Source of the DNA: Limulus polyphemus
Lineage: Eukaryota
DNA: 20,500 bases
Assembly (NCBI RefSeq): GCF_000517525.1
Contig: NW_013668828.1
Span: forward strand, 33,672-54,171
Direction: 5' to 3'
Shown: piece after piece, positions 1,235-19,993 of the stretch
How positions within the stretch are numbered: position 1 is the first letter of the stretch
Layout of the letters: every line of letters starts with the position of its first letter
Program-made: the position numbers and the translations under genes
Notes under the pieces: model-generated
Told to the model about the DNA's origin: nothing
The model's input: the letters and a program-made list of their open reading frames with translations, nothing else
Databases searched by the model: none

Positions 1235-4200
1235 TTTTATGCAAAGACTATTTACTTTACATTGACTTGGTTAGACGACAATCTTTGTTAACCATTCGTG
1301 CTTAGCCCATGATTCTATCTTGTTTGAAGATAATATATACAAAAGTGGAAACCTCCATCAGTTGCTATGTATGCTGAAGATCACCTGCAATACCCATAAA
1401 AAATGTGTTCTTTGACTACTGAGGATCCCAGTATAACTGACATGGACAGAGCATTCAATCTTGGGTCATGCTATGTAATATTGTTAGTGTACAAAACTAA
1501 AATGATAAATATAATAAAAACCAAAGTTTCATTAACAACTGCAAATCTCATCAAATTAAATGCAAATAAGAAAAAAGTTGACATATCTGTCCAATGCAGT
1601 GCTAAGGAGAAGTTATCATGAGTCCCACTGGTGAAGGTTTGTTTTTGCATGATCAAATCATCATCATGTACCAGCACAATTTATGTTCACCATATGAATA
1701 TAAGTGGGAGTAAGCTCAAGGCTAGTGGCATGGAAACCTCATAGGAGATGCAAGAGACGTATAGCATTTCTGTGCGTGTTATTTTATATCAAAACCACAT
1801 CAGGCTATCTGCTGTGTCCACTTAGGGGAATAGAACCCCTGATTTTAGTGTTGTAAATCCAAAGACTTACCGCTGTCCCAAAGGGGGATGCATTTCTGTG
1901 TGAAGAGGTAGATTATCATCTCAGAAATATTTTTAAATCAACATGAGAAACAAATCCAGCTACTTTTTTAAACAATATAAAAAAAAGCAATCAAGATAAA
2001 CTTTTACTCCAATACATCTATAAGTTTTTTTTCAGTTGTACAATGTAAAAGGAACACTGATAAAACTAACTTTTGTAGTTATTCTACTAAAAATACTTAG
2101 GTTTTTCTACTGCTTTATAAACTCAAAATCTAATGATCATAACAAAATAAACCATACTAACTTTTTGCCTTTACAACTGAACAAGCAAACAGTTCCATCC
2201 TGGTAGCCTGCTACAAGGTACCTTCCAACTTGACTCAAGCTAGTTATCATTCTTCGTACTTGCAGTGCTTGTATATCTAACAGGTTTGACCCATCCTCTA
2301 GCAAGACCACCTAATAAAGTAAACATAGTATTCATTCACATAATTTTAATGCAGTTCTTTACCTATTATCTCAAAAAAATGCTATGAAAAGGACATTCTA
2401 TTTCATGCTGAACCACTGTGAAGAAAGATTAGCCTTATTACTTGAAAGCTGCATATAACAGGAGATTAGGTTAGAATATTCACAAAACTTCATGGAAATT
2501 ATTAATATTCTCTATATTGTACAGTTGTTCTTAGTGTGATGTTCTTCTGATACGTAATGTTACTTAATGCTATTCAGTTCACTGAAACTTTCAGCAATCA
2601 GATGTTGCAGAATCTGTGATTTAAAATATGATATGGATTAATAAGACAAAGTTTTTACTTAGATTTCAAATCCAAAAACTTTAGAAAAAAAAAAGCAATT
2701 TGAAGATGAAAAAAATCTGGTGTTCATTAAACATCTGTAGTTAATATATTTCAACCAACTATAATATACTTCTCACAGTATAATTTAGAATCCAAGTACA
2801 CAGGCTTGTTCAACATCACTTTTACTGAATTTATAGAAAGTTAGAACTGAGCCAAGCAGGTTCAATGCTTATATTTACACTACAAAAACTCCTGAATGGA
2901 TTACATGTAGCTCTTGATTTTACACTGCTGACAAATAAAACCAAGAATTTGGATATTGAAACCCCACCTTTATCTGTCCAGTTTTAGATGCAACACATAT
3001 TCCACATAGAGTACCAGAAGAGGGTTTCTTAAAAGAGCTAATGCAGTTGACAGAGTCTCTAACTAGCATTTTTTTCCAAAACAGAGCACCTGGTAAATAT
3101 TCGTTATACACAAAAACCTTGAGTTGTGTTTTATTTTAAAAGAAAAGAAAACAATATACGTATTCACATAAAAAAAAAGCATGCATCAATTTAACAGTAT
3201 TATTACATTCTATATTATACCAAACAAAGATAGCTAGAATATAAACAAATTATTGCAACAAAGTAAAATGTAAGAAAATAGCTCTCAAAGCTTCATTTAA
3301 GATTCTACAATTCTTAAAAGTACAACTTAAATTCAAGAAGTTATTTTCATGCAGGAATCTTCTGGATAGGTATGTATTAAAACTAAATTTTATAGGCACT
3401 TCACGCACATATGCAGGAGGAGGTTTTGAGATGGTTTGGTTGAACCCCCTATTTTTGTGATGTAAAAAAATTATGCTTATAGTTATAGAGCAGCTACTAA
3501 TGATATTTAACGTTTTCGAAATAGTCTACATTATTCTGATGAAGCATTAGCATTTTTTGCCTTGAAACAGCCGCATATACCCAGACACGCAAAGCATTAG
3601 CATGCTCTGCAAGCTGATTATGCTTCGCACAATATGTGTTGGCTTTTGATCTTGCAAATAAGAACCCCTTCCTCTTAAGCATTCTGCATATGAGCCTGCA
3701 ATTTTAGAGAGAAATGTTACCTCTTTCCATACAGGGTTAGTCGATGTAACCAACCCTTTTAACCTCAAAGTAACCATCATAGTTTCTATACTATAATGTT
3801 TAACATGTTTTACGTATCTTTACAAAATTTAGCATGCTTTTAGTAAACATTACAGGTCTTTTGCACACAAAAAATCAGATTTTTCAATTAAGTACTTTAC
3901 TCAAGATTTACCCTTGAATATAAGGAATCATGGTGTTGACTGCTCAGAATGATTTTCACGTTAATATTAAAAATACTTTTCTTCATTTGAAAATTGTAAA
4001 ATGTCATTTGCTAGAATCTCTAAAACCTCCTAAGTAAATATCAAACTTTTTTTTTCAGTAAAATTTTGTTTTATCTGTGATTTTCTCTACCCAAACTTGG
4101 TCAATTTGACCAACCTTGTAATCACCCATAAAAAAATACAAAATAAATCTAAATCTTTTTTTTTCTAGAATGACTGCAGATTCGAACAGAAAATTACAGT

Positions 4201-6241: not shown

Positions 6242-6304
6242 AAGAAAAAAGTAATTACAGTAAATTCTAAATAAAAGTAATAACAAAGCTGTTAACACAT
6301 TATA

Positions 6305-6450
6305 TTATTCTACAACTACGTCTGTACAAGTAGAGAAAATAAGGGACGATACCAGCATCAAACTGATTAAGGCCACTAGATGCAAAGCTGAATGTATCAG
6401 ACGAGTTAAAGGGAACGTCTTAAAACAGCTCATATACATGCTCAAAAACT
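6305..6450 (-). CDS. Tentative terminal coding exon of the WD40 gene (hydrophobic C-terminal tail, includes stop codon)
   Basis: Minus-strand acceptor is 'cttgctccag|AG' (AG from plus 6451-6452). With the 1-nt carry (G) from exon 7058-7205 the frame reads [51 protein letters not shown], which is 47 codons open in about 30% GC DNA. AATAAA lies about 100 nt downstream. Phase-compatible, but not supported by homology I can recognise. Confidence 0.35.
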
Positions 6451-9400
6451 CTGGAGCAAGTAGTTCGTATAAATATTAAATAGATTATAAAGAGTTTTAT
6501 ATTAGAGATATTTTATGGAACCAAAACAAAAAATAGTATGACACAATCCAACATGAATTTTAACAAAGCTAAACATTATGTCTACAACATAAAGTAAAAA
6601 AATAAAATTATTTAAAGCAAATTTATCAACTATAATCTGTAACCTTTAGAAATTCTACACATAAGCAAGCACTGTGAATTCTTCAAAACAAACTTTCTAA
6701 ACCTTATGAAACAAAAAAAAATTTTTTAATGCTTCATCTACCATTTTCAAATAATTTCTAATAAAAATTCAAAAACATTATGCATAAGTATTTACAGCAC
6801 AATATCTGTAAATATTGTCACAAAGAAATGTGGTAACTTCAAATAAATTATTTCATCAACTTGGATTTTGACATTAGACTTCTCGCACACCAGGTGAGTG
6901 CTCTTTCAACTAAGCTAAAGGATTAACCCACTAGTACTTTTTAACAACTCAAGTTACTAAAGAATGTTTGGTAAGCTGCATACAGTACCTGTGTACTTAC
7001 TCTATTACAGATATTTTCTTCATAGTCTAATTAGGTTAGGTTTTCGTTGATTTTTACCTTTTTGTGTATCAAACAGACAGACTTCTCCAGTTTCTTGTCC
7101 AACAGCAACATAAGAAATATCCAAAAAGATCATACAAGTTGGAGTTGAAGATAAAACTGATTGAGGTATGGTGTGTACAACAGCCTTGCTGTAACTGATC
7201 CATACCTGCAATTATAGCAATTTTAAAACATTTAATACAGAAACTCTAGGGGGGGAAACTTCATAATTATGTGATGATAAGCTGATTAGGACAGTAGCAG
7301 TTATTTCTTGTTTTGATACAGATAAAAACTAAAAACTCGGCACTTTAGGAAAGACAATATTAACAAACTATGGGGTGTTATTTTAAAAGACAAATTAACA
7401 ATAAGCACAGCTCTAAAACAACAGCTGTAACATAGTAAAATCTTTACTAAAAATAATGTAAAGTTATATTTCTGAGCATTATATCCAAAACAAAGTTAAT
7501 TTTCACATGATCAGGAGGCAAAAGCTTTCTAAATGTAATATTTCAAAGCATAGCCAAGAAATACATTTAAATCTCTGTGAAAGAATTTGGAAAAAAAGAA
7601 ATTAATTAAGTATTCATTAGAATTGTGATAATAGTATGTAAAGATATCACATATTTCAATACTTTAATGCCAAATACCTTTAAGGTTCTATCTTTACTCC
7701 CTGTGATCATAATGTCCTCCGAAATTGAAAAAGATGCACATGTGACAGGAAGAATATGACCTTCCATTTTACCAATCTGAAAAGTGTCAAAACACTAACA
7801 ATTATTAATGATGACAAGAAACCCACTTGAAGTAAAAATGTATAGCAGAGACGGTTGGTATGGGTATTAAAAACTTTAATTAAAATAAAGTACAAGAACA
7901 ACGTTTCAACCTTCTTAAGTCATCATCATTTGTACTTTATTTAATTAAAGTTTTTAATACCCATACCAACCGTCTCTGCTATACATTAACAATTATTATT
8001 ATTATTTCATTTTTGTTTTCTTAAGAAATTTTGGTCCAAGTCTGCATAATAATCTTACTTACAAAACTTCCACTGTTTTTAGTTTGCAGAGTTAATAATT
8101 TTACTGGGATAAGTTCAAAGCCTTCAAGTAATACCATCATGATAGTGTACATAAAGACAAACAAAAAGAATAAAAAACATATTCTGGAGCTGCCAATTTA
8201 ACATTTTTGACATGAGGCTGACATGCCATTCTGTACATTGGTTACAAACCAACCATGAGAACGTACAGCTAGAGCTGGTGATAAACTGAACAAATACCTC
8301 TTCACCAGATAATAACCTTACAAAAAAACATGGAGATAAAATGCACATAACAATAAACAAAGGCAAAATAATCTTTTATTTTTGGCTTATGGTCATGTTC
8401 TGTTTTTTTTTAAAGTCCAACAAAGTTTCTATGTGTGAGTAATTTAGAAGATGAAGTACTACAATCCCCTTCACTAAACCTGAGTCAAAAACTTAGATGT
8501 TTAATTGTTTAGTAGTATGAATACTATTTATTATATGTAAGTAATGTAGCAGATGAAGTACTACAATCCCCTTCACCAAACCTGAGTCAAAAACTTAGAT
8601 TTTTAATTGTTTAGTAGTATGAATACTATATATTATATGTGAGTAATGTAGCAGATGAAGTACTACAATCCCCTTCACCAAACCTGAGTCAAAAACTAAG
8701 ATTTTTAATTGTTTAGTAGTATGAATACTATTTATTATATGCGAGTAATGTAGCAGATGAAGTACTACAATCCCCTTCACCAAACCTGCTGTAAATACAT
8801 TTATTACTAGTGAAGTGTACTAAGCTACATCTCAAAATGATGTTATTGCCATGAATATTTCTTATCATTGTATCTATTTGTTTGAGAAATGCCAACCTGA
8901 AGTAACTAAACAGGAAATTACACTTTTAATCTAGTGCAAGAATAACCCATGATTTATCTAATAATAATAATAATGAGCTGAATAAAAATAAATAAGTTAT
9001 AAGTTCACTAACCCGAGTACCTTGAGATGCTGACCACAGGAATACTTCCATTCTGGATGATGATGACACAATATGTTGACCACTAGTGCTAAAAGCCACA
9101 AATTGCACAGACCCTTTATGACCATGGAGGATCTAAGAAAATTATATGATACTTTAATAACAGCAATGTCTGACAAGTCCATTGACTTCATACTCATTCA
9201 AGGTGTCCACAAAACTATACTAATTACTATATTCTTTGGTGTCAGTTCCATATGTTTTACCTCTGCTCTGCCTATACAACAAATCACAACTGGTATAAAT
9301 TGGTTCAAACCTGCTTTTACAATAAATACACACAACAACAACAACAAAGATTAACACACATGCTTAAAAACACAATCGGTGAAATTCCTAATAGTTACAA

Positions 9401-12400
9401 CTATGCATGAATAAATAAATGTCAAAACAAATCATGTTATTTTTCACTATGATTCTCAGTAACTTCTACTAGTGTGATTACTCACTGCTTTTCTTCTAAC
9501 TGTAACAAGATCCCACAGTTTAACTGTTTGGTCCCATCCTCCACTAACCAGTAGCTGCTTCTCTGGATGAAAATCTATACAGCTGACTGGTTTCCTAAAA
9601 CATAAATTATCTTGTTATTCTACTATAACGTATTTTAATTTTTTTATGAAATAGAAGTACTTTAACTAACAAGAATTTATACATGTATCATGACCAATGA
9701 GGAATGTAATTTCAAACTATATTAGCTCCACAAGTTTGGCCGTCTCAGCACCAACCTTTTTATGTCTTCAAACACAGAGTAGTAGACTTTATTTATGCAC
9801 ATTTCTACTGCTGAAGTTGGAATATGATTTCATATTACAATTAGCATAACTGAACATGCTGGAATGAGTCTTAATAAACATTCTATGCAATGAAAAAGTA
9901 TTCAGGTAGTATATACATCTGTAAGAAATGTTAAGCACTTACATAACTTATAGATGGTTCTAAACATCCGTAAATTTGAAAAGCAAAATAAAGGAAGTAT
10001 TCTGATAATCCACACAAGTAACCAAGAAAAGTATTTATTCAGTATTTCTGTTTTATGCATGCCACAGTTGAATGCAACTCATATAAAACAAATAATTTTG
10101 ATACTGCATCTTTCTTTTTTTTCACCAAGATTTAAGAATTAGGATCCTACCAATATTTCTAGTACAGTGAAAACTATAGAATTTTCAATGAAAATTAATA
10201 ATTTAACACTTGACTTTAATGATAAAGTATACAGATGATGTAATACATGTGCTATTATGCCTTATTACTTCAACCGTTACAATAAATCACAACCGATGCA
10301 CCAGGAAGGAATGAAAACCAGTGCACTTTGATAAGCTAATTAGTTTCATGAAATTAATAAATTTAATTGATACTCAAGGTAATCAACTGATCAAGTTAAC
10401 TGCTCAGTTCTAACTGTATACAGCACTGAAAAATATACATTTTTCATTGAAACACTTATTTGTATTAGAAGTTAATGTCTATGAACCTGTAGCCACATGT
10501 AGTTTGCATGTTTTTTATGTTACTCTGAGTGATATTTTAACTCCTTATTTAGGAATTACACACATACTGAAAAGACTAATTAATTTGGGGCAAATCTTGG
10601 GTAACTCAGTCTATTACATGGTTGGAATGCATTTTTGGATATTTGGTTTGAATTCTATTTTCAAAACCTCGTAAATTATTGGTTTACAAGCTCCTACTAC
10701 ATACACATATTCATAATAATTTTACTTCTTTACTTCTGACTTTTACTCCTGAACAACAATCCTTACTTGTTCTGTTTAATACAGGTAATTTCTCTACAGT
10801 CTTTCCCACTCCAGATTCTTATTGTTTTGTCCCATCCTGTAGAAACAATGGTGGTTCCATCAGGATCAGAAGCACAGGAAGTTACACTTCTTATGTGACC
10901 ATCTAAAACTCCAATTCTGTAGTAACAACCAAAAAAAAAAAGATATTAGTGTAACTCATATTATTTTAATTATTTCTTTTTACAAAACAAAGCAATATAG
11001 GTCTAAATAAGAATTTTCTCTGAATAAAACTCAGCAAGAATTAAAATAATTTTTAAGAGATGAATCTACAATGAATAATGAATGTTATGTATAAAAACCT
11101 CAAGTATTATATAAAACACCTGGAAAATAATACTAAGTAAAACAAATCATTACAACAAGAAAATCTCCAAAATACAAAAAGTCATCTTGCAGCTTGTAGG
11201 TATTTGCTATTTTCAACCTGAGTAACAACGTATGTAATGTGCTAAATAGCCAGGACAGACACCCAAAAGTTCAAACTTAGCAACCTCTAATTTAATACTG
11301 CTAGTCAGAAAAGGGACAACCAGTCAGATGCACCTACTACCAAATAGCATGGTGTGACAGTCACAATCATAATTTTCCCACAACTGAAAGTGCAGAGCAT
11401 TTACAGAGGCATTTCATGACTCAGGCTTTGAACCTTCCAAACCACAGCTTGGCATACTAACCACAAGGCCATACTAATCCCAGGATCTTTAAATAACAAT
11501 TAGTAAACATACACTGAGCGTACATGTAAATACCCATAGTTAAATGATTTCATTAGCAAGTATAAGAAATTATGTGCACATTTCTTTAAGTATTCCAGAC
11601 ATCTTTAAAGTTATCCAGGCAAATTAACTACATGAATAGTCTATAACCACTGAAGAATGCCAATGACACTTACCTTTTATATACCTTCATTAAATTTGAG
11701 CAATAACTACTGTAACAACTTGACATAAATCAATTTTCTGTGTGAAAATTAGTTAATTACTGAGGTAAATCTAAAAGCAGTGGAATTGGCAACATTTAAT
11801 ATATGTTGAAGGAAATATACATAATATCAAAAAGAAATCTCACTGGAATAAAAAACCACTTAGTTATGACGAGTAACTGTTAAAAGTCATTGAACTTTTC
11901 TCTATGGAAACTAGGCCTTGATTTATACAAATGCTACTGTGTGTAATAATACTTAAACAGAAAGGTGGGAAGAATGAAAAATGCTTTACAGTAGAATTAA
12001 AAACAACAACTATATAGTTGTGTTGACTATTGAAAATTATCTAAATCTGTTTATCTATCTATGTATATAAATTAGGCCTCAGTCACACATGTGATTGTGG
12101 ATATTAATAACTAAATTCAAAGAAAAGAAGAATGAGAAAAACCCTTCTGAGTAAAGTTGGTGATATATGTTCAGTATCAGTAAAATATCACTTGGATGAT
12201 ACTTACAAAACAAATGACGATTCAAAATATTCAACAACATAAACAGTAGGTGTTAAAAAAGCAAGTCTAGAGTGATAAACGGATTCAAATCAATATTTGT
12301 AAAAATAGGTGAGATTTTATGCAGCTTCAAGCTTCAAATTTTTTTCTTCAATTAATATGTCTTGTACTTACAAAAAATAGAAGCATATACCTTGCGTTTT

Positions 12401-14309
12401 TTATATCTATGCAGTTCAACAAAGTTTAAAGCTAATAGCTAAGAGAAGTTGTATTTTTCCCATAAATTTAACTGTGAATTTATAATATTTTAGTTTATTC
12501 ATAAGTCTCTTTCATTTTATTGTTTTGTCTGGTCAAGGTTGTATGTAAATCTGACATTATAAATTATATTTAAATATATAATTGGAATAATTTATTTATA
12601 ATACTCTGAGTTTCTAAATAATTCATTTCAGACTATAACTTTCACTGTGAGAAATGTCTTTTGTTAATTCTAAAAGACAACACTTTGTAATAGGTGATTC
12701 CTCAGATATTGATTTGCTAAAAAAAGTTAAATATTTTCTTACCTATATCCTCTTGTTATGTCCCACAAACATAAGCTTTTATCTACTGAAGAACTGCATA
12801 ACTTGTCATTTCCCACAAAACATATACTTGTTATTTTCTGAATGTGGCCTGTTAATGTACGTTTTATCTGTAACAAAGATATTGAAGATATTAAGAACAG
12901 TAACTATTTCTACAGGAGAGTAGCAGCATATACTCTTGTAAACAATCCCAAAAATCAGGTACTAAGTGTTGAATCAAATCGATGACAATGTACACCTACA
13001 AATCATCATCAGCTAAATTTATTTCTTAAGCATGGTTTAGTATTACAGCATGTGACAGCCAGCAAGGTAATAATCTATTTTAATAAACCCCAAACTTTAC
13101 AATTGAAATGTACTAATTGTTCATTTATTATCCAAAAAAAATATATTCTCCAACACAAAGTCCTACTTAAAAGTGGAGTTATCTGCACTAGCAGTTTCTT
13201 AACCCTCTCACTATAGGTCTTCCTATAGGTCAGGGGTCAAAGGGCATGCCATCATGTTTGTAGACTTACATTCAAAATTTTATTGATCTACTATTTTATG
13301 AATGTATGCCAATATGTTTGGTATCACATTGTACATTATAATTCTAATTTTAGTATTATATATATTAGTTAATTTCTTAATTTAAAAGCAACTATAAAAA
13401 CAAAATTCATAAATATCAATTTTTGTGTGTCACATGATATATTTAATGCAGCTTTGATTCGAATTAGATGTTTGTGATGTACAAATTCTATAGTTTCTTA
13501 TGAATTAAAAACTCAAATTACTGATATTGACAAGCTAGAATATAAAATAAAACTTCCTTTTTTTCTTCTGAGATATCACTACATTTAGTAAATCAAACAC
13601 AGTGGGCCCCGCCCACCTCTTTCATTTTTGGCTTGCTTACGTACACCTACTCTGTCTATGACGTGTAAATAACCAAGTAAAAGCTCAGAATGTCTTCCAC
13701 ATTGTTTTCTCAGCCTCTAGGAGGTTGAAAGTTCCCAAGATTATTTCTTTGTTTCGGATCTTGGAAGGAATGGGTAAGTGAAAATTTTGTCCAAAACACA
13801 ATATTTTTTTTTACCCAAATACAGTTTAGTTAGTAAGTCTGATAAATTACGCTGGATTACTGCAATATCAATAGTCATTTATAGTATTTGGTTCTTTCAA
13901 AATGCATATATAAAACCTAAAAAAAAATATTTTCTTTTACATCCTCCACGTGAAAAATTTGACAAGGCTTACCAAATTACGACAAGCAGGCAAACAAGTA
14001 AAAAGTTTGTAAGTAGAAAAAATCATTGTTTTTCTATATTTCTTTATATACTGTTCTATGTTTTAAGAAAACTAATCCAAATTTTATAACTTATTTGTAA
14101 AGATAATAATATATATACATATATAATGTATTATAACTGAAACGCGACTGTATTTTACAAAATACTGGTCCACTAGAACAAACCGTAGACAGATCAATTT
14201 GTAAAAGCCAATTTTATACTATTGAATACAGTTACACGAGTGCACCGAGCCGCATCAATGCAACTTTTGTAATGTTAGTTAGACAGAGCTTAAAGGTCAA
14301 TAAAATAAA

Positions 14310-14344
<35 letters not shown>

Positions 14345-15780
14345 TGTATAATGTTATGAGATTTAAGCTATTTAGAGTAAACATTTATGGATTCTTGTTA
14401 TAATTTGTAGTCATTCAAGAACAAAAAATGTGTAATTTATATCCATTTCCTAATTTTTTACGTTGGTTATGAGGTCAGTCAAATAGACTAAACTCATACA
14501 GAGATACAATAGTGAAATAACAGATAAAATATAAAGTTCTTTCAAAAACAAAACGTTTGATAATTATCTGGTGGTTATTAGGAGGTTATAACTTGACAAT
14601 TTTCTGATGCATAAAAGTATTTTTAATCTTAAAATCAAAATTATTGTTTTTTGGATAGTCAAAATTCTAAAAATAAAAAAAATGTGCAGGCAACTCATTG
14701 CTTCAAAAATCTTAAAACTTAATAAACAAAATCAGATATATTGTGTACTAAAGCCTTGTATTGTTTACTGATAATCTTTAAAATTTTGTGAAGATACACA
14801 TACTGCATTAAAAGTCATAGTATGAAAACTATAACAAGCACCAAATAGTACGAAATTGGTCCCTGGGACAGAGCATGTAGTGAGAGAGTAAATTTTGAAC
14901 TGAAAAACTAAAGGGATGGCAGCTAGTCAGAATTACCCACTGAAGGATGTCATCTAGTCAGAATCTCCTACTTAGAGAAGGCAGCTAGTTAGTATTACCC
15001 ACTGCCATCTCTTTGGTTAGTCTTATCAAAGTGGAATTTGAAGTTACTTTTATAATGTACTCATGGCCCTAAAGTGCAGAGCATGGTTTTACTGCAACAC
15101 TAGACCACTGCTGGTGCCATTTGAAAAAAAACTAACAAAGGCACTCAAAGTGGTACCAAGGTTTAGCCTATATTCCTGTGAGATATGCAAGTTATTTTCT
15201 TATGCAGAATATTTATGATGACTACTTAGGAAGGAAATTCACAACGACAGTGATACTCATATAGATGAGATTGTAAATTTTTGCTGTATTTTGATGGCTT
15301 AATCTTATTATTAATTGTCATACTGGAACATCTGATTATAGATAGTTTTTTTACCTCCCATGCTAGAATTATTCAGGAGAGCAGTCAGATCAAGGAGTAA
15401 AACACTAAATCAGAAAATAACAGTAAGACCACTGTTATACAATCTCATATTGTCATGTGAACAAATAAATAATACACTTGCGTTTTCCTCTCCAGAACTT
15501 TTCTCACAAATTTCTCGATCAAATGATACAAATCTCATATCATAAGAAAGGCCTTTATCCTACTAGTCTGGATTGCATATTGGCTTTTCCATTTAGAATC
15601 ATCTTACCTGTTTTAACATTACATCCACCTTAAAAGGCTGCACATTTGACACAGATCTCAAAATCATAAAAAAAAAGCACTTACAGAACCAGTTTGGACA
15701 TCTATAAGTCTTATTACACCATCCTGTCCTCCTAAACCAGCAATATCACCCTTCCTTGAAACTGCCAGACACTGTATTGG
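6305..15780 (-). CDS. Gene-level span of a multi-exon WD40-repeat (beta-propeller) protein gene; the 9 exons are listed separately and the 5' end probably lies further upstream
   Basis: Eight exons with canonical AG/GT boundaries join in phase, and their conceptual translation contains at least 7 WD40-type blades (GH...WD-like units). See the individual exon entries. Confidence 0.75.
6848..6935 (-). repeat. Degenerate tRNA-like SINE head fragment
   Basis: The minus strand reads 'gggttaatcctttagcttagttgaaagagcactcacctggtgtgcgagaagtctaatgtcaaaatccaagtt'. It has a D-arm-like 'TAGCTTAGTTGAAAGAGC' and 'ATCCAAGTT' resembling the B-box region of the SINE heads at 18720-18789. Similarity is weak. 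Confidence 0.2.
7058..7205 (-). CDS. WD40 gene coding exon (phase 0 start, 1 nt carried out)
   Basis: Minus acceptor is 'ttgctataattgcag|GTATGG' and donor is 'CAAAAAG|GTAAAAAT'. It encodes [49 protein letters not shown](+G). It joins the upstream exon as ...GSKDRTLK|VWI..., a classic WD blade end. Confidence 0.7.
7678..7776 (-). CDS. WD40 gene coding exon (99 nt, phase 0/0)
   Basis: Minus acceptor is 'cttttcag|ATTGGT' and donor is 'CTTAAAG|GTATTTGG'. It encodes [33 protein letters not shown], a GH...TGSxDxTxK WD repeat. Confidence 0.75.
7837..7987. repeat. Near-perfect ~150-bp palindrome (two ~57-bp arms, ~36-bp loop); MITE/foldback-like hairpin in an intron
   Basis: Left arm 'aatgtatagcagagacggttggtatgggtattaaaaactttaattaaaataaagtaca' is at 7837-7894. 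Right arm 7931-7987 is its reverse complement, with one 1-nt indel (aaaat versus aaat). The loop is 'agaacaacgtttcaaccttcttaagtcatcatcatt'. Confidence 0.8.
8063..8121 (-). CDS. WD40 gene coding exon (59 nt; starts with 2 nt completing Gly codon, ends phase 0)
   Basis: Minus has a long polypyrimidine tract 'ttttttattctttttgtttgtctttatg...cttgaag|GC' and donor 'AGTTTT|GTAAGT'. With the carry-in G from exon 9021-9132 it encodes [20 protein letters not shown]. It is the only stop-free frame, and its phase matches both neighbours. Confidence 0.6.
8431..8787. repeat. Intronic tandem repeat, about 3.5 copies of a 102-104-bp unit
   Basis: Unit 'atgt(g/a)(a)agtaatgtagcagatgaagtactacaatccccttcac(c/t)aaacctgagtcaaaaacttagat(t/g)tttaattgtttagtagtatgaatactat(t/a)tattat' starts at 8431, 8535, 8637 and 8739. 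The minus ORF 8595..8783 is a read-through of this array. Confidence 0.85.
9021..9132 (-). CDS. WD40 gene coding exon (112 nt, phase 0 start, 1 nt carried out)
   Basis: Minus acceptor is 'tttcttag|ATCCTC' (AG from plus 9133-9134) and donor is 'CTCAAG|GTACTC'. It encodes [37 protein letters not shown](+G), a textbook WD blade (GH..V..VAFS..G..IVS.S.D..V.LW). An in-frame TAG lies immediately upstream of the acceptor. Confidence 0.8.
9486..9594 (-). CDS. WD40 gene coding exon (109 nt; 1 nt completes Lys codon, ends phase 0)
   Basis: Minus acceptor is 'tttatgttttag|GAAACC' and donor is 'AAAGCA|GTGAGT', a consensus donor. It encodes (K)[36 protein letters not shown]. Confidence 0.85.
10767..10916 (-). 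CDS. WD40 gene coding exon (150 nt; phase 2-type start, 2 nt carried out)
   Basis: Minus acceptor is 'tatcttttttttttggttgttactacag|AATTGG' and donor is 'CAGAACAA|GTAAGG'. It encodes (R)[49 protein letters not shown](+AA). The upstream exon's AG plus A gives Arg. The carried AA plus G of the next exon gives Lys. Plus-strand ORF 10679..10906 is its antisense shadow. Confidence 0.85.
11220..11478 (-). mobile_element. tRNA-derived SINE copy (intronic, same orientation as the host gene)
   Basis: Minus-strand head is 'cctgggattagtatggccttgtggttagtatgccaagctgtggtttggaaggttcaaagcctgagtc', with an A-box-like TGGTTAGTA and a B-box-like GGTTCAAAGCC. The body 'gcctctgtaaatgctctgcactttc...ctgactagcag' is homologous to 14900-15118 and to the other SINE copies. 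Confidence 0.55.
12743..12867 (-). CDS. WD40 gene coding exon (125 nt, phase 0 start, 2 nt carried out)
   Basis: Minus acceptor is 'cttaatatcttcaatatctttgttacag|ATAAAACG', with an in-frame TAG just upstream, and donor is 'GGATATAG|GTAAGA'. It encodes [41 protein letters not shown](+AG). The junction with exon 15685-15780 reads ...LIDVQTGS|IKRTLTGH..., a canonical WD blade boundary. Plus-strand ORF 12654..12923 is its antisense shadow. Confidence 0.85.
13596..13775 (+). promoter_or_regulatory. CpG-containing promoter-like module plus a putative first exon of a plus-strand transcript (ATG-G followed by GTAAGT), nested in the 2.8-kb intron of the WD40 gene
   Basis: Read directly: GC/Sp1-like box 'gtgggccccgcccacc' at 13602-13617; CRE-like 'tgacgtgt' at 13659-13666; TATA-like 'taaataacc' at 13666-13674; ATG at 13770-13772 in 'ggaaggaATGGgtaagtg', with a consensus GTAAGT donor directly after ATG-G. 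CpG is clustered locally in otherwise CpG-poor DNA. The minus strand has no ATG-containing ORF here, only a GTAAGC donor at about 13635-13640. Confidence 0.35.
14314..14342. repeat. (TA)14 microsatellite
   Basis: atatatatatatatatatatatatatata, read directly. Confidence 0.9.
14826..15120 (-). mobile_element. tRNA-derived SINE copy (intronic, sense to host gene) with an internal ~25-bp motif present 3 times
   Basis: Homologous to the 17846-18064, 18512-18789 and 11220-11478 copies ('ggcagctagt.a...cccactgcca.ctcttgg...' and '...aaagtgcagagcat...'). The motif 'ggcagctagtcagaattacccactg' occurs 2.5 times (14910-14934, 14972-14996, and partially 14940-14960). Confidence 0.55.
15685..15780 (-). 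CDS. WD40 gene coding exon (96 nt, phase 0/0); most upstream exon identified
   Basis: Minus acceptor is 'ctctctttctgtag|CCAATACAG' and donor is 'GGTTCT|GTAAGTGC', a consensus donor. It encodes [32 protein letters not shown]. Confidence 0.8.
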
Positions 15781-15888: not shown

Positions 15889-16300
15889 GACAGGAGTTTT
15901 ATAGAATATCTTTGGGTTTTAATGATTAAGGTTTTGTTTTTTAAAAGATTTTATTCAATGTTAAAACCATAACAGGAGTTTTATAGAATATCTTTGGGTT
16001 TTAATGATCAAGGTTTTGTTTTTAAAAGATTTTATTCAATGTTAAAACCATAACAGGAGTTTTATAGAAGATCATTGGGTTTTAATGATCAAGGTTTTGT
16101 TTTTTAAAAGATTTTATTCAATGTTAAAACCATAACAGGAGTTTTATAGAATATCATTAACATTGAATAAAATCTTTTAAAAAACAAAACCTTGATCATT
16201 AAAACCCAAAGATATTCTATAAAACTCCTGTTATGGTTTTAACATTGAATAAAATCTTTTAAAAAACAAAACCTTGATCATTAAAACCCAAAAACCAAAA
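15889..16300. repeat. Composite palindromic array: about 3.1 direct copies of an ~88-bp unit (15889-16158) followed by about 1.6 inverted copies (16159-16300)
   Basis: Direct units 'acaggagttttatagaatatc(t/a)ttgggttttaatgat(t/c)aaggttttgtttt(t)taaaagattttattcaatgttaaaaccata' start at 15890, 15972 and 16063. From 16159, 'aacattgaataaaatcttttaaaaaacaaaaccttgatcattaaaacccaaagatattctataaaactcctgttatggttttaacattg...' is the reverse complement. The predicted foldback has a stem of up to about 140 bp and a loop of about 30 nt. Confidence 0.85.
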
Positions 16301-17845
16301 GTTGTATGTAACTAAGAAAATAACAAAAATCCAGGACCATAATGCTGGATTAGACTAAAGATTTTTTTACCATGTTAATGTTTTTATACAAACAAAGAAA
16401 GCTTTAGTACTGGGTTAGAAAATAGATGATGAATGTTACAAAAAATAAAGACTGCCAAAAGAGTATTGCTTTATATTTGAAAAACTTTCAGAAAAACTGT
16501 TAAAAATGAAGGAAAAAAAATCAAGTTTACCATAACTTTAACATCGCTTCATACTACAATGTATGTATAGTACAAGGTACTTGTATAGCTTCAAGTCTGT
16601 TTTACTGGGTCAAATACATTATTATACAATTCCAAAAGGAATATCAATGAACCTATGTGTATTTCACCGAGTTAATTTGTTAATAATATAATGATTACTT
16701 TTATAATTACAGGGTTACTTACAAAAACAAAGACTATATGTTTCTGAATTATTAATTAAAAATAGTTATTACACATATTTTACTTATTTAAATTTTACTA
16801 ACCAATAACCTCCTTTGGAGTTATTATTTCAGTGTTTCTATATGTTTTTCAGATAAAAGCTCTATACACATTCTACATAAACAGAGAACAGTTATACAAG
16901 TACAAGCCTATATTTTAATTTATAATAGCTTGTACATGAAGATGAATAGGTGCTAATAAGGCCTCTTGGTTGCTCACCTTTAATCATGGAAAAATTGTTC
17001 TACAACTTCATAAGTTATATTTCTTCCCATAAAATATGACCGTATGAGGAAAAGCCATAAAAACAACCTTTCCATCAGCATCTTAAGACATTAATGGCAA
17101 GACATAAAGATAAGCTTATATGTGCAGCTGTAGGAACTACTTACCTCTCTGAATTCAGATAATGTCAACCTAAGGGGTTCAGGGAACTGAGGCCTTGTTA
17201 ACCAGTGGATGGCCCAAGCCGATGTATTTTGTACTGCATCAGTATACACGCACGAAGAGTCTGGTTCATTAAGGGCCTGTTGTCGTACCAAACTGGGGTA
17301 CCTTTGAACACCCAAAACAAATATATATCTTAATTTATATACCAAAGTTCTTGTCAGTGTATCATTTTAATATTTAATAGATACTTTATGTGAAAATTCC
17401 AAATTTACTAACTATTGTTGTGAAGTTATAATTTATAAATAATAAAACATTCAGATGTTAAAGTTTTTCCACCATTTTATAGCTGTTTTACTTTTCATTT
17501 GTGATTAAATGTATAATATTACTGTAAGAATTTCAAAGAATATCATTTCATGCTTGTTTTTTACAGCACATAAGTTTACTGTTTGATGTTTCTAACGTAA
17601 AACTCTTCTTGTAGGCGCTATTGTGAAATTATATACGTAATAACATCTTTGCAATAGGCATTTCTGCTTTCGTTATAAGCAGTCTGGTACATACAGAAAA
17701 CTCACTATGTATGTGGTATATGCAGGCACACTATGTGTTTCTTACATATTATATAGGTAGTGCTTGCATCCTTAGAATAGTAGTATTATTGTTTAATGTA
17801 CAAAATGATGTATTTACTTAATCAGAAACAGCTTTGGTTTTAGAT

Positions 17846-18064
17846 TTTTTCTGCAAAGTTTGCTTGAGGGTTATCTCCACTTCTCATCCATAATTTAGAA
17901 ATGACAGACTAGAGGAACGGCAGCTAGTCAACACTATCCACCATCTCTTAGGCTATTTTAATCGAATACTGGCATAGAATGTCAAATTATAACATCCCCC
18001 ACGGCTGATAGGACGAGAATGTTTGGTGATGGGATTTGAACCCGTTACCCGTAAAGGTGTCACA
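17846..18064 (-). mobile_element. tRNA-derived SINE copy (sense to host gene)
   Basis: Minus-strand head is 'gtgacacctttacgggtaacgggttcaaatcccatcaccaaacattctcgtcctatcagccgtggggg...', with B box GGTTCAAATCC. The body 'ggcagctagtcaacactatccaccatctcttaggc' and the tail are homologous to 18512-18789. Confidence 0.6.
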
Positions 18065-18511: not shown

Positions 18512-18789
18512 TTGGTTTGTTCGTTTTGAATTTCGTGCAAAGCTACATAAGGGCTATCTGTGCTAGCCATCCCTAATTTAGCAATGTAAGACTAGAGGGA
18601 AGGCAGCTAGTCATCACCACCCACTGCCAACTCTTGGGCTACTCTTTTACCAACGAATAGTGAGATTAACCATCACATTATAATGCCCCCATGGTGGAAA
18701 GAACAAGCATGTTTGATGGGACGGGGATTCGAACTTGCAACCCTCAGATTGCGAGTCGAGCACTCTAACCACCTGGCTAGGCTGGGCCC
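18512..18789 (-). mobile_element. tRNA-derived SINE copy, most complete (tRNA-like head, conserved body, 'gtagctttgcacgaaattcaaaacgaacaaacc' tail)
   Basis: Minus-strand head is 'GGGCCCAGCCTAGCCAGGTGGTTAGAGTGCTCGACTCGCAATCTGAGGGTTGCAAGTTCGAATCCCCGTCCCATC'. It has an A-box-like TAGCCAGGTGG and a B-box-like AGTTCGAATCC. It is followed by a tRNA-unrelated body shared with the three other copies. Confidence 0.7.
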
Positions 18790-19046
18790 TAAGATCACTG
18801 TCTGAGTATAAGACATATCAAAACACCATACATATAATGCTTCTCGCTAACAAAACAAAAAGCAACACAAACATGGTAAGTAACACTGAAATGGAATAAT
18901 ACATTTTCAGGTATGATGTGCCATATTTACAATTTTTCTTAAACAGTAGCACAAAAACATCATTTACATTCTATTTAAAATTAATGTGCAATGGTATTAG
19001 AACTGCGAGCATAAACATAGAAATGATTTTGATGTTGGAGATGCAT

Positions 19047-19617
19047 ACTGTAAATATTATATCCTCAATGACTGAGGAGTGTGATAACACCTCTTATACC
19101 ACACTGTAAATATTATATCCTCAATGACTGAGGAGTGTGATACACACCTCTTATACCACACTGTAAATATTATATCCTCAATGACTGAGGAGTGTGAAAA
19201 TACCTCTTATACCACATTGTAAATATTATATCCTCAATGACTTAGGAGTGTGATAACACCTCTTATACACCCCCTTAAATATTATATCCTCAATGACTGA
19301 GGAGTGTGATAACACCTCTTATACCACACTGTAAATCAGTCATTGAGGATATAATATCTACAGTGTATCTGTTTCAATCATTATTTTTGAAGTGTACAAG
19401 TATGTTTTGTGTATATCACTCTACTGATATTTAATTGTCCATTTACATTTGAGTACTACTATCTATGATTTTGTCATTGTGAAATGCAATAATAAATTGT
19501 TTCTTGACCATGAAGCAGAGAGGTGAGAAGTGTGGTATAAGAGGTGTTTTCACACTCCTCATTTATTGAGGATATAATATTTACAGTGTGGTATAAGAGG
19601 TGTTATCACACTCCGTA
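19047..19617. repeat. Tandem array of 5 copies of a ~57-bp unit (19047-19335), followed by a short inverted partial copy (19336-19365) and, after a ~160-bp spacer, 2 inverted copies (19526-19617)
   Basis: Unit 'actgtaaatattatatcctcaatgactgaggagtgtgataacacctcttataccac' starts at 19047, 19103, 19160, 19218 and 19273. 'cagtcattgaggatataatat' and 'gtggtataagaggtgtt(t/a)tcacactcctca(t/g)t(t/c)attgaggatataatatttacagt' are its reverse complement. Plus-strand ORF 18918..19109 is a read-through of this array. Confidence 0.85.
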
Positions 19618-19649: not shown

Positions 19650-19993
19650 TTAGTAGGAAGTTATGCTCAAAACTACTAACCTCAACAAAATGTGAAGGTT
19701 TCGAGATATAAACTGGTAGTAAGCTGAAACTTTTTTGTTCAAATTCTCATCTTTGTTAAATGTTTTTACTGTTGATATCCCAGTGATAAGCAAAGAGTTG
19801 AAATTGTCCAGCAAGCATGATCCTTGACCAAGTCGAAAATAAGCCTCAATAAAGCTGAGGTCACAGAAGATTTCTGATAGATATTTAGTGCAAGATGCCC
19901 TGCATAAATGGTATGGAAGGGCCTGAAAAGCTTCTGGCCATTTACCTGTCCAGGTTTTAGAGCCTTGAGGGTCAGCCTTATGTAACATTAGAG
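19650..19993 (-). CDS. Coding exon of an uncharacterised protein, probably a 3'-terminal exon; may belong to a separate upstream gene or to the 5' part of the WD40 gene
   Basis: A 124-codon open frame in about 30% GC DNA, with locally raised GC. The minus strand has a strong acceptor 'tatattttattttag|CTCTAATG' (AG from plus 19994-19995). The in-frame stop is at 19650-19652, with AATAATAAAA on the minus strand about 10-25 nt downstream. An internal consensus donor 'ACAG|GTAAAT' and 'TTGAG|GTTAGT' are alternative exon ends. The product reads ...LMLHKADPQGSKTWTGKWPEAFQALPYHLCRASCTKYLSEIFCDLSFIEAYFRLGQGSCLLDNFNSLLITGISTVKTFNKDENLNKKVSAYYQFISRNLHILLRLVVLSITSY*. I do not recognise any family. Confidence 0.4.

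Follow-up and report, generated by a model that had tools for sequence, protein, structure and literature searches.

On its minus strand the window, a stretch of 20,500 nucleotides of Limulus polyphemus DNA, contains a run of 11 internal exons (528 codons) which, judged by sequence comparison, very probably belong to the horseshoe-crab orthologue of telomerase protein component 1 (TEP1; Table 1). The gene runs past both ends of the window, which holds about a quarter of it.

Exon structure of the minus-strand gene

The exon model was rebuilt from the Tachypleus tridentatus orthologue (2281 aa in about 77 kb; reference locus CM014389.1 252576473-252657800) and extends from 19993 to 2162, its 528-aa product corresponding to Tachypleus residues 1490-2017. 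The splice junctions are predicted ones, placed by comparison with a Tachypleus protein that is itself a computational RefSeq model. A sequence-only reading of the same DNA had described a self-contained WD40 gene of nine exons between 6305 and 15780; the eight exons that it quoted are all found on the minus strand where it had placed them, with AG...GT borders and with phases that join as described, but what they make up is an internal segment of the much larger TEP1 gene. The revised model keeps seven of these exons, one of them with its donor shifted by 8 nt, and adds two exons upstream and two downstream. The upstream pair, located by tblastn, bears out the expectation that further 5′ exons lie beyond 15780, and the phase of Exon B links Exon A to E1.

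Table 1. TEP1 exons in the window, with ungapped nucleotide identity to Tachypleus and, for the added exons, the tblastn match to XP_076330930.1.
Feature	Coordinates	Strand	Exon in sequence-only reading	Length and phase	Product	Nucleotide identity	tblastn match (residues)
Exon A	19681..19993	-		313 nt, enters phase 1, leaves phase 2	LMLHKADPQG...RNLHILL(R); APAF-1-like helical domain, between NACHT and WD40 regions; first TEP1 exon in window	88.8%	1483-1593, 83% identity
Exon B	17145..17301	-		157 nt	(R)YPSLVRQQALNEP...LTLSEFRE; linker from helical domain into blade 1	87.3%	1593-1645, 81% identity
E1	15685..15780	-	1	96 nt	blade 1	93.8%
E2	12743..12867	-	2	125 nt	blade 2	89.6%
E3	10767..10916	-	3	150 nt	blade 3	93.3%
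E4	9486..9594	-	4	109 nt	blade 4	93.6%
E5, long form	9013..9132	-	5, plus 8 nt	120 nt	blade 5	93.3%
E7	7678..7776	-	7	99 nt	blade 6	91.9%
E8	7058..7205	-	8	148 nt, leaves phase 1	blade 7, strands a-c	94.6%
E9	2968..3089	-		122 nt, enters phase 1, leaves phase 0	(G)ALFWKKMLVRDSVNCISSFKKPSSGTLCGICVASKTGQIK; last strand of blade 7 and start of blade 8 (first blade of second propeller)	90.2%	1919-1969
E10	2162..2310	-		149 nt, leaves phase 2, donor AA/GTTAGT	VVLLEDGSNLLD...GYQDGTVCLFSCKGK; blades 8 and 9; last TEP1 exon in window	83.2%	1973-2017

The shifted donor is that of exon 5, which had been located correctly at 9132-9021 but given too short an end: the donor lies 8 nt downstream (CGG/GTTAGT), the exon ends in ...SASQGTR in phase 0, and it leads straight to E7. 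Across the same junction the Tachypleus protein reads SASQGTQ/IGKMEGH, and TEP1 homologues of other phyla, which align at about 30-34% identity over the whole 528 aa, have no indel there. At the other end of the model, the next downstream exon (QGTLLSNVTAHEGH...) was sought in 2161-1 and is absent; nor is it expected in the window, because in Tachypleus it starts at locus position 69343, about 300 nt past the point at which the window end aligns (window position 96 aligns with 69045).

Each of the 11 exons agrees with its Tachypleus counterpart in length, phase and AG/GT sites and aligns to it without gaps at 83-95% nucleotide identity, and together these counterparts translate exactly to XP_076330930.1 residues 1490-2017. 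The window as a whole is collinear with Tachypleus locus positions 49571-69045, its introns at about 72-83% identity. The two protein segments share 86.6% of their amino acids, with a dS of 0.256 and a dN/dS of 0.25, and the window TEP1 exons are thus under purifying selection. Whole-genome duplications occurred in horseshoe crabs, and one might read the locus as a decaying TEP1 duplicate, an ohnologue or a pseudogene, instead of a functional orthologue, given an identity of only 87% to the Tachypleus protein and a view of just 528 of roughly 2300-2700 codons. That is very unlikely for a sequence in which 11 of 11 exons are open, unchanged in length and intact at their splice sites and in which selection is purifying; moreover, introns that remain collinear over kilobases at about 75% identity are more in keeping with an orthologue between genera (dS 0.26) than with an ancient duplicate.

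Apart from this gene, Pfam gave no match above threshold in 10 other minus-strand ORF segments or in the 10 longest ORFs of the plus strand; these ORFs thus give no hint of another gene on either strand, and a search of the window with Rfam at gathering threshold returned nothing. A “tRNA-Cys” called by ARAGORN at 1816-1887 on the minus strand falls within a dispersed SINE-like repeat, has no Rfam support and was rejected.

Candidate exons at 8063-8121 and 6300-6418

Two segments that the sequence-only reading had counted, or needed, as exons behave differently in the comparison with Tachypleus. Its exon 6 (8063..8121, minus strand, 59 nt) aligns to Tachypleus at 72.9% identity and with 6 gap columns, the acceptor AAG reads AAT there, and the segment is missing from the Tachypleus protein; as an exon it would add a 17-aa insertion that is absent in 9 TEP1 homologues, and it gave neither a tblastn match to TEP1 nor a Pfam match. 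The segment is most likely intronic. One could still imagine it as a lineage-specific alternative cassette exon, paired with the more upstream of the two exon 5 donors (by 8 nt), in which case the first TEP1 propeller would gain a loop of 17 residues between its blades 5 and 6. In Tachypleus its frame is open, its two internal indels are of 3 nt each and its donor is conserved, but the acceptor AG is not, and we regard such a cassette exon as very unlikely.

The ninth, terminal exon had been placed near 6300 with no peptide quoted for it, and the only phase-compatible ORF that reaches about that position is 6300..6418 on the minus strand, which ends in TAA. It is 71.2% identical to Tachypleus, where indels of 1 nt and 5 nt break its frame, and yields neither a tblastn match to TEP1 nor a Pfam match; by this comparison the segment is to be read as intronic, and the exons that really follow E8 are E9 and E10.

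A self-contained WD40-only gene of nine exons at 6305-15780, complete with the 59-nt exon and a terminal exon near 6300, is therefore extremely unlikely. Its proposed borders are all canonical AG/GT and consistent in phase, and the exon-6 frame does stay open in Tachypleus through two 3-nt indels; yet both of its distinctive segments diverge in the manner of introns, indels included, the acceptor and the insertion of the smaller one fail to recur (in Tachypleus and in the 9 homologues, respectively), and conserved exons lie beyond it on both sides, at 19993-19681 and 17301-17145 as well as at 3089-2968 and 2310-2162. Phase agreement, which had been put at a chance of about (1/3)^7 across seven junctions, overstates the evidence: the 1236-nt intron between E5 and E7 alone contains 35 or 38 stretches of 40-250 nt, depending on which of two possible donors is used, that are open, compatible in phase and bounded by AG..GT. 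Careful hand reading can thus reconstruct the bulk of a spliced WD40 coding region, but AG/GT borders and phase agreement cannot tell true exons from decoys.

Domains, fold and membership of the TEP1 family

The window encodes an APAF-1-like helical domain, a complete first propeller of seven blades and the first ~1.75 blades of the next. The Pfam WD40 profile (PF00400, cutoff 27) scores 147 bits on the 299-aa product of the sequence-only reading, which also matches many PDB WD40 chains, and 155.9 bits on the 528-aa product. An AF2 model of the latter, built with a 30-sequence TEP1 alignment, has a mean pLDDT of 84.2; it is helical over residues 1-128 (pLDDT about 90), followed by 35 beta-strands or 8.75 blades (7 complete and 1.75 more), and holds a pLDDT of 87-88 over the E5/E7 junction. 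A single-sequence AF2 model of the 299-aa product was uninformative (pLDDT 35). Profile and blade count together bear out the earlier proposal of a spliced, minus-strand WD40 propeller with at least seven blades. The claim that the exon junctions all coincide with GH or WD holds only roughly: exons and blades correspond approximately one to one, but the junctions are spread over three sites, one 3-7 residues ahead of GH, one immediately behind the GH-equivalent and one immediately ahead of the W of WD. Blades 1, 4 and 7 lack GH, and blade 5 bears a divergent 11-residue segment.

The sequence-only reading had found no named WD family to which the protein could be assigned; the family can be named, and it is TEP1. 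The top match of the window product is a Tachypleus tridentatus protein, XP_076330930.1, which bears the name “telomerase protein component 1-like”. The same protein is the best match (E 1.7e-99, 84% identity, residues 1490-1676) in an exhaustive HMMER search with a non-repeat query made up of the helical domain, the linker and blade 1, and it is followed by many proteins of 2300-2750 aa that are matched at about residue 1300-1700. All source-named matches in that search are telomerase protein component 1 or 1-like, from Tachypleus, Priapulus, Mizuhopecten, Anneissia and Branchiostoma. For the 299-aa product, a k-mer-indexed protein search yielded nothing but generic WD40 proteins, most of them bacterial, at no more than 36% identity, and for a 156-aa non-repeat segment it yielded no match; its index evidently lacks TEP1 orthologues.

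Two TEP1-specific profiles also match the 528-aa product, Beta-prop_TEP1_2nd (PF25047, 105.8 bits, cutoff 89) and Beta-prop_TEP1_C (PF25048, 44.8 bits, cutoff 32), but they are weak evidence alone, because generic propeller families score higher. XP_076330930.1 contains TROVE (374 bits), DUF4062 (47 bits) and the TEP1 propeller families, with AAA_16 and NPHP3_N also listed. By this orthologue, TROVE, the DUF4062/TeTIR NADase and NACHT are encoded upstream of the window and the remaining propellers downstream; since the N-terminal domains that define TEP1 lie outside the window, membership rests on orthology and collinearity.

Another STAND/WD40 protein, NWD1/NWD2-like or APAF-1-like, would account for the match of Exon A to the APAF1_C profile (PF17908), a marginal one (23.1 bits, cutoff 22.8), and for the presence of full-length Apaf-1 beside WD40 propellers (best 7- and 8-bladed) among the Foldseek matches of the AF2 model; the DUF4062-NACHT-helical-WD40 plan is, besides, common to NWD1 and NWD2 (bioRxiv 10.64898/2026.05.01.722283). 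Almost no credence can be given to this assignment when the collinear Tachypleus gene has a TROVE domain of 374 bits, specific to TEP1 within this group (bioRxiv 10.64898/2026.09.21.753143), when the best named matches are all TEP1, and when the matched proteins have the length and the matched region the position that TEP1 predicts.

TEP1 in the window and in other systems

TEP1 has been linked to vault RNA stability and located at the vault caps (PMC2193651), its TROVE domain being reported to bind and stabilise vault RNA. The WD40 propellers at the C-terminus of STAND-type proteins are described as a sensor and autoinhibitory module; by the same scheme, they would control the oligomerisation of NACHT and, through it, the N-terminal effector, which in TEP1 would be a TIR-like NADase. 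A sensor role for the TEP1 WD40 region is a published proposal and a speculation (bioRxiv 10.64898/2026.05.01.722283; 10.64898/2026.09.21.753143). These aspects of TEP1 biology, both the binding of vault RNA and the TIR-like NADase that has lately been described within a STAND architecture, are under study elsewhere. TEP1 is already annotated in the sister horseshoe crab Tachypleus, so the gene is a known one and the call an ordinary one; all that the window contributes is an orthologue's sequence of the TEP1 helical domain and first propeller, of little import beyond annotation.

With the Tachypleus TEP1-like gene the window shares its exon lengths, phases, splice sites and collinear introns; the two differ as separate species or lineages (dS 0.26), and transposon insertions and expanded tandem repeats set their introns apart. 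The vertebrate TEP1 plan runs TROVE - VWA - DUF4062/TeTIR - NACHT - helical - WD40 propellers, with the helical domain placed between NACHT and WD40 (bioRxiv 10.64898/2026.05.01.722283), and the window shows the same helical-then-WD40 segment, although some of its blades are divergent (GH missing in 1, 4 and 7) and the N-terminal domains lie outside it. APAF-1, with the plan CARD - NB-ARC - HD2 - two WD40 propellers, shares an HD2-type helical domain directly before a 7-bladed propeller, as reflected in the PF17908 match and in the Foldseek matches to 3sfz, 3shf and 3j2t, but the identity is only 16% and the Tachypleus orthologue has TROVE, DUF4062 and NACHT-type domains instead of CARD and NB-ARC. 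APAF-1 is thus an architectural analogue, and the window gene stands outside the APAF-1 family.

The TEP1 segment and its Tachypleus orthologue

The window is AT-rich (GC about 30%) and eukaryotic in character, and the eight peptide blocks that the sequence-only reading quoted from a nine-exon WD40 gene are all present on the minus strand, each bordered by AG and GT and with compatible codon phases, as claimed. The core observation of a WD40 coding region stands: the 299-aa product of that reading scores 147 bits with Pfam PF00400 (cutoff 27), matches many other propeller families, and finds hundreds of WD40 chains in the PDB, with 2ymu at the top (4e-170). A word-indexed protein search with the same product returned only bacterial-type WD40 proteins, at identities of 36% or less. 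Since a generic WD40 query draws any WD40 protein, non-repeat sequence was sought upstream. Further 5′ exons had been predicted beyond 15780, and two were found, in phase with E1: exon A leaves in phase 2 through a GTTAGT donor, and exon B gives the third base of the Arg codon and leaves in phase 0. Exon A scores 23.1 bits (cutoff 22.8) with PF17908, the profile of the APAF-1 helical domain.

An exhaustive HMMER search with 188 aa comprising the helical domain, linker and blade 1 gave a clear top match (E 1.7e-99, 84% identity) to residues 1490-1676 of XP_076330930.1, a 2281-aa telomerase protein component 1-like protein of Tachypleus tridentatus. Behind it came many proteins of 2300-2750 aa, matched around residue 1300-1700, and the remaining named matches are TEP1 or TEP1-like (Priapulus, Mizuhopecten, Anneissia, Branchiostoma). 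The Tachypleus protein has TROVE (374 bits), DUF4062 and TEP1 propeller families, and NACHT is likewise carried by this collinear orthologue. Judged by orthology, the segment is assigned to the TEP1 family.

When the Tachypleus protein was aligned to the window by tblastn, eleven collinear pieces emerged, with none at exon 6 of the sequence-only reading and none within 7026-3120. In the 81 kb Tachypleus locus (L001; gene at 2001-79328), the reverse-complemented window is collinear with 49571-69045; introns align too, at about 72-83% identity, and only dispersed repeats break the collinearity. All 11 exons are gap-free, equal in length and 83-95% identical between the species, with AG/GT kept in both. 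The spliced Tachypleus counterparts translate exactly to residues 1490-2017, and thus the revised model matches the orthologue's annotated exon structure; by the same collinearity, the exons preceding A and following E10 lie just outside the window. Across the 528 codons, identity is 86.6% in amino acids and 90.4% in nucleotides, dS is 0.256, and dN/dS of 0.25 indicates purifying selection. A dS of 0.26 together with about 75% intron identity suggests an inter-genus orthologue, and the window most likely comes from another limulid, a group with the genera Limulus, Carcinoscorpius and Tachypleus. The segment, a conserved and selected TEP1 coding stretch, contains a helical domain followed by WD40 propellers. 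The gene is known already, with an annotation in a sister species; calling it here by hand was done well, if imperfectly.

Exons in the sequence-only reading and in the revised model (window positions)
Exon	Sequence-only reading	Revised model	Strand
A		19993-19681	minus
B		17301-17145	minus
E1	15780-15685	15780-15685	minus
E2	12867-12743	12867-12743	minus
E3	10916-10767	10916-10767	minus
E4	9594-9486	9594-9486	minus
E5	9132-9021	9132-9013 (long)	minus
6	8121-8063	rejected	minus
E7	7776-7678	7776-7678	minus
E8	7205-7058	7205-7058	minus
E9		3089-2968	minus
E10		2310-2162	minus

In Tachypleus, a gene called directly after the 2281-aa model (L001 80323-81328) has a TEP1 C-terminal propeller match, and the model itself falls 250-450 aa short of TEP1 from other phyla; in the public annotation the TEP1 3′ end has probably been split off as a separate gene.

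Exon 6, the terminal exon and the weight of phase agreement

Exon 6 of the sequence-only reading is not supported. At 72.9% identity to Tachypleus, with six gap columns, it is as divergent as an intron; its acceptor AAG reads AAT in that species, and it is missing from the Tachypleus protein, which reads SASQGTQ/IGKMEGH. When E5 ends at a GTTAGT donor lying 8 nt further downstream than the one originally chosen, the window reads SASQGTR/IGKMEGH. In an alignment with nine TEP1 homologues, which span several phyla, only the version with exon 6 has a 17-residue insertion at this point, and the AlphaFold2 (AF2) model of the revised product places a confident tight turn at the E5/E7 junction (pLDDT 87-88). 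In Tachypleus (L001 60556-60623) the frame is nevertheless open, both internal indels measure 3 nt, and the GTAAG donor is kept, only the acceptor AG being lost. This is probably due to chance, but nothing else speaks for an alternative-exon reading.

A ninth, terminal exon had been proposed and its peptide never given. Only one ORF in a compatible phase extends to about 6300, namely 6418-6300, closed by a TAA stop codon. Against Tachypleus it shows 71% identity and indels of 1 nt and 5 nt, and neither tblastn with the Tachypleus protein nor Pfam gives a match.

The estimate of chance phase agreement, (1/3)^7, is undercut by decoys: the E5-E7 intron holds 35 open, phase-compatible AG..GT segments of 40-250 nt for the long E5 donor and 38 for the short one, so that canonical borders and phase agreement are cheap evidence; exon 6, one such decoy, has both. 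At three of the 11 donors, those of exon A, long E5 and E10, the sequence is GTTAGT in place of GTAAGT or GTGAGT. Tachypleus keeps each of them, and the wrong E5 donor may come in part from favouring the commoner GTA donor. Junctions were said to fall always at GH or WD, which is not the case: about one exon per blade holds, and the positions are of three kinds, namely 3-7 residues before GH (E1/E2, E2/E3, E4/E5, E5/E7), just after the GH equivalent (B/E1, E3/E4) and immediately ahead of the W of WD (E7/E8, E9/E10).

Repeats in the introns

Pfam searches of other ORF segments revealed no further gene on the two strands, and no Rfam family matches in the window. Several tandem arrays lie in the introns, together with repeats of SINE-like and MITE-like type. 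Just upstream of E7 the intron contains an inverted repeat with perfect 48-nt arms (7837-7884 and 7940-7987) and a 55-nt spacer; similar sequence at non-collinear L001 3005-3184 and 33754-33822 suggests a MITE-type transposon insertion specific to the window's lineage. A dispersed repeat resembling a tRNA-derived SINE recurs as copies or fragments at 18515-18786, 17860-18060, 14890-15040 and 1770-1900, with the common core '...GGCAGCTAGTCA...CCCAC...', and related copies are scattered in Tachypleus (L001 25792-26054, 68160-68347, 17868-18058, 29115-29226). ARAGORN places a tRNA-Cys-like structure in it (1816-1887, minus strand); Rfam finds no tRNA there or elsewhere in the window. About 1.2 kb of the E1-E2 intron (13226-14475), in which no ORF can be recognised, is an interspersed repeat and matches non-collinear L001 5451-6571 and 35128-35904 at 67-84% identity.

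The tandem repeat in the intron after E5 (8430-8805; 102-nt unit, 3.5 copies, 95% identical) has apparently grown in the lineage of the window, because the Tachypleus alignment spans about one unit (L001 59128-59214). An 82-nt tandem array (15890-16292) close to the E1 acceptor, some 110 nt upstream, forms head-to-head inverted blocks (arms 15911-16027 and 16176-16292, 98% complementary) and is probably recent, as its repeats are clean. In the intron that follows exon A, a 56-nt tandem repeat of about 5 copies (19044-19367 and 19529-19614) recurs in inverted form 200-400 nt away; Tachypleus has one unit (L001 50453-50512).

Predicted structure and role

The AF2 model of the revised product, built with a 30-sequence TEP1 alignment (mean pLDDT 84.2), has a helical bundle at residues 1-128 and 35 beta-strands after it. 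These form seven complete blades of four strands each (158-446), in line with the earlier count of at least seven, then blade 8 and three of the strands of blade 9; the window therefore covers the first propeller in full and the beginning of a second.

TEP1 is a subunit common to vault and telomerase particles, maps to the vault caps, and is needed for vault RNA to be stable and to associate with vaults (PMC2193651). TEP1 runs from TROVE/VWA through DUF4062, NACHT and an APAF-1-like helical domain to WD40 repeats, a STAND layout in which DUF4062 is TeTIR, an active TIR-like NADase (10.64898/2026.05.01.722283; 10.64898/2026.09.21.753143). By analogy with APAF-1, it has been speculated that the propellers sense some signal and govern both the oligomerisation of NACHT and the activation of the NADase (10.64898/2026.05.01.722283). 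We hold with middling confidence that this signal-sensing control is the segment's most likely role, the alternative being scaffolding or vault docking. Foldseek against the PDB returned generic WD40 propellers, with no solved TEP1 propeller among the best 50 matches listed; full-length Apaf-1 (3sfz, 3shf, 3j2t) aligned across helical and WD40 parts alike, a resemblance to APAF-1 that is one of architecture only.
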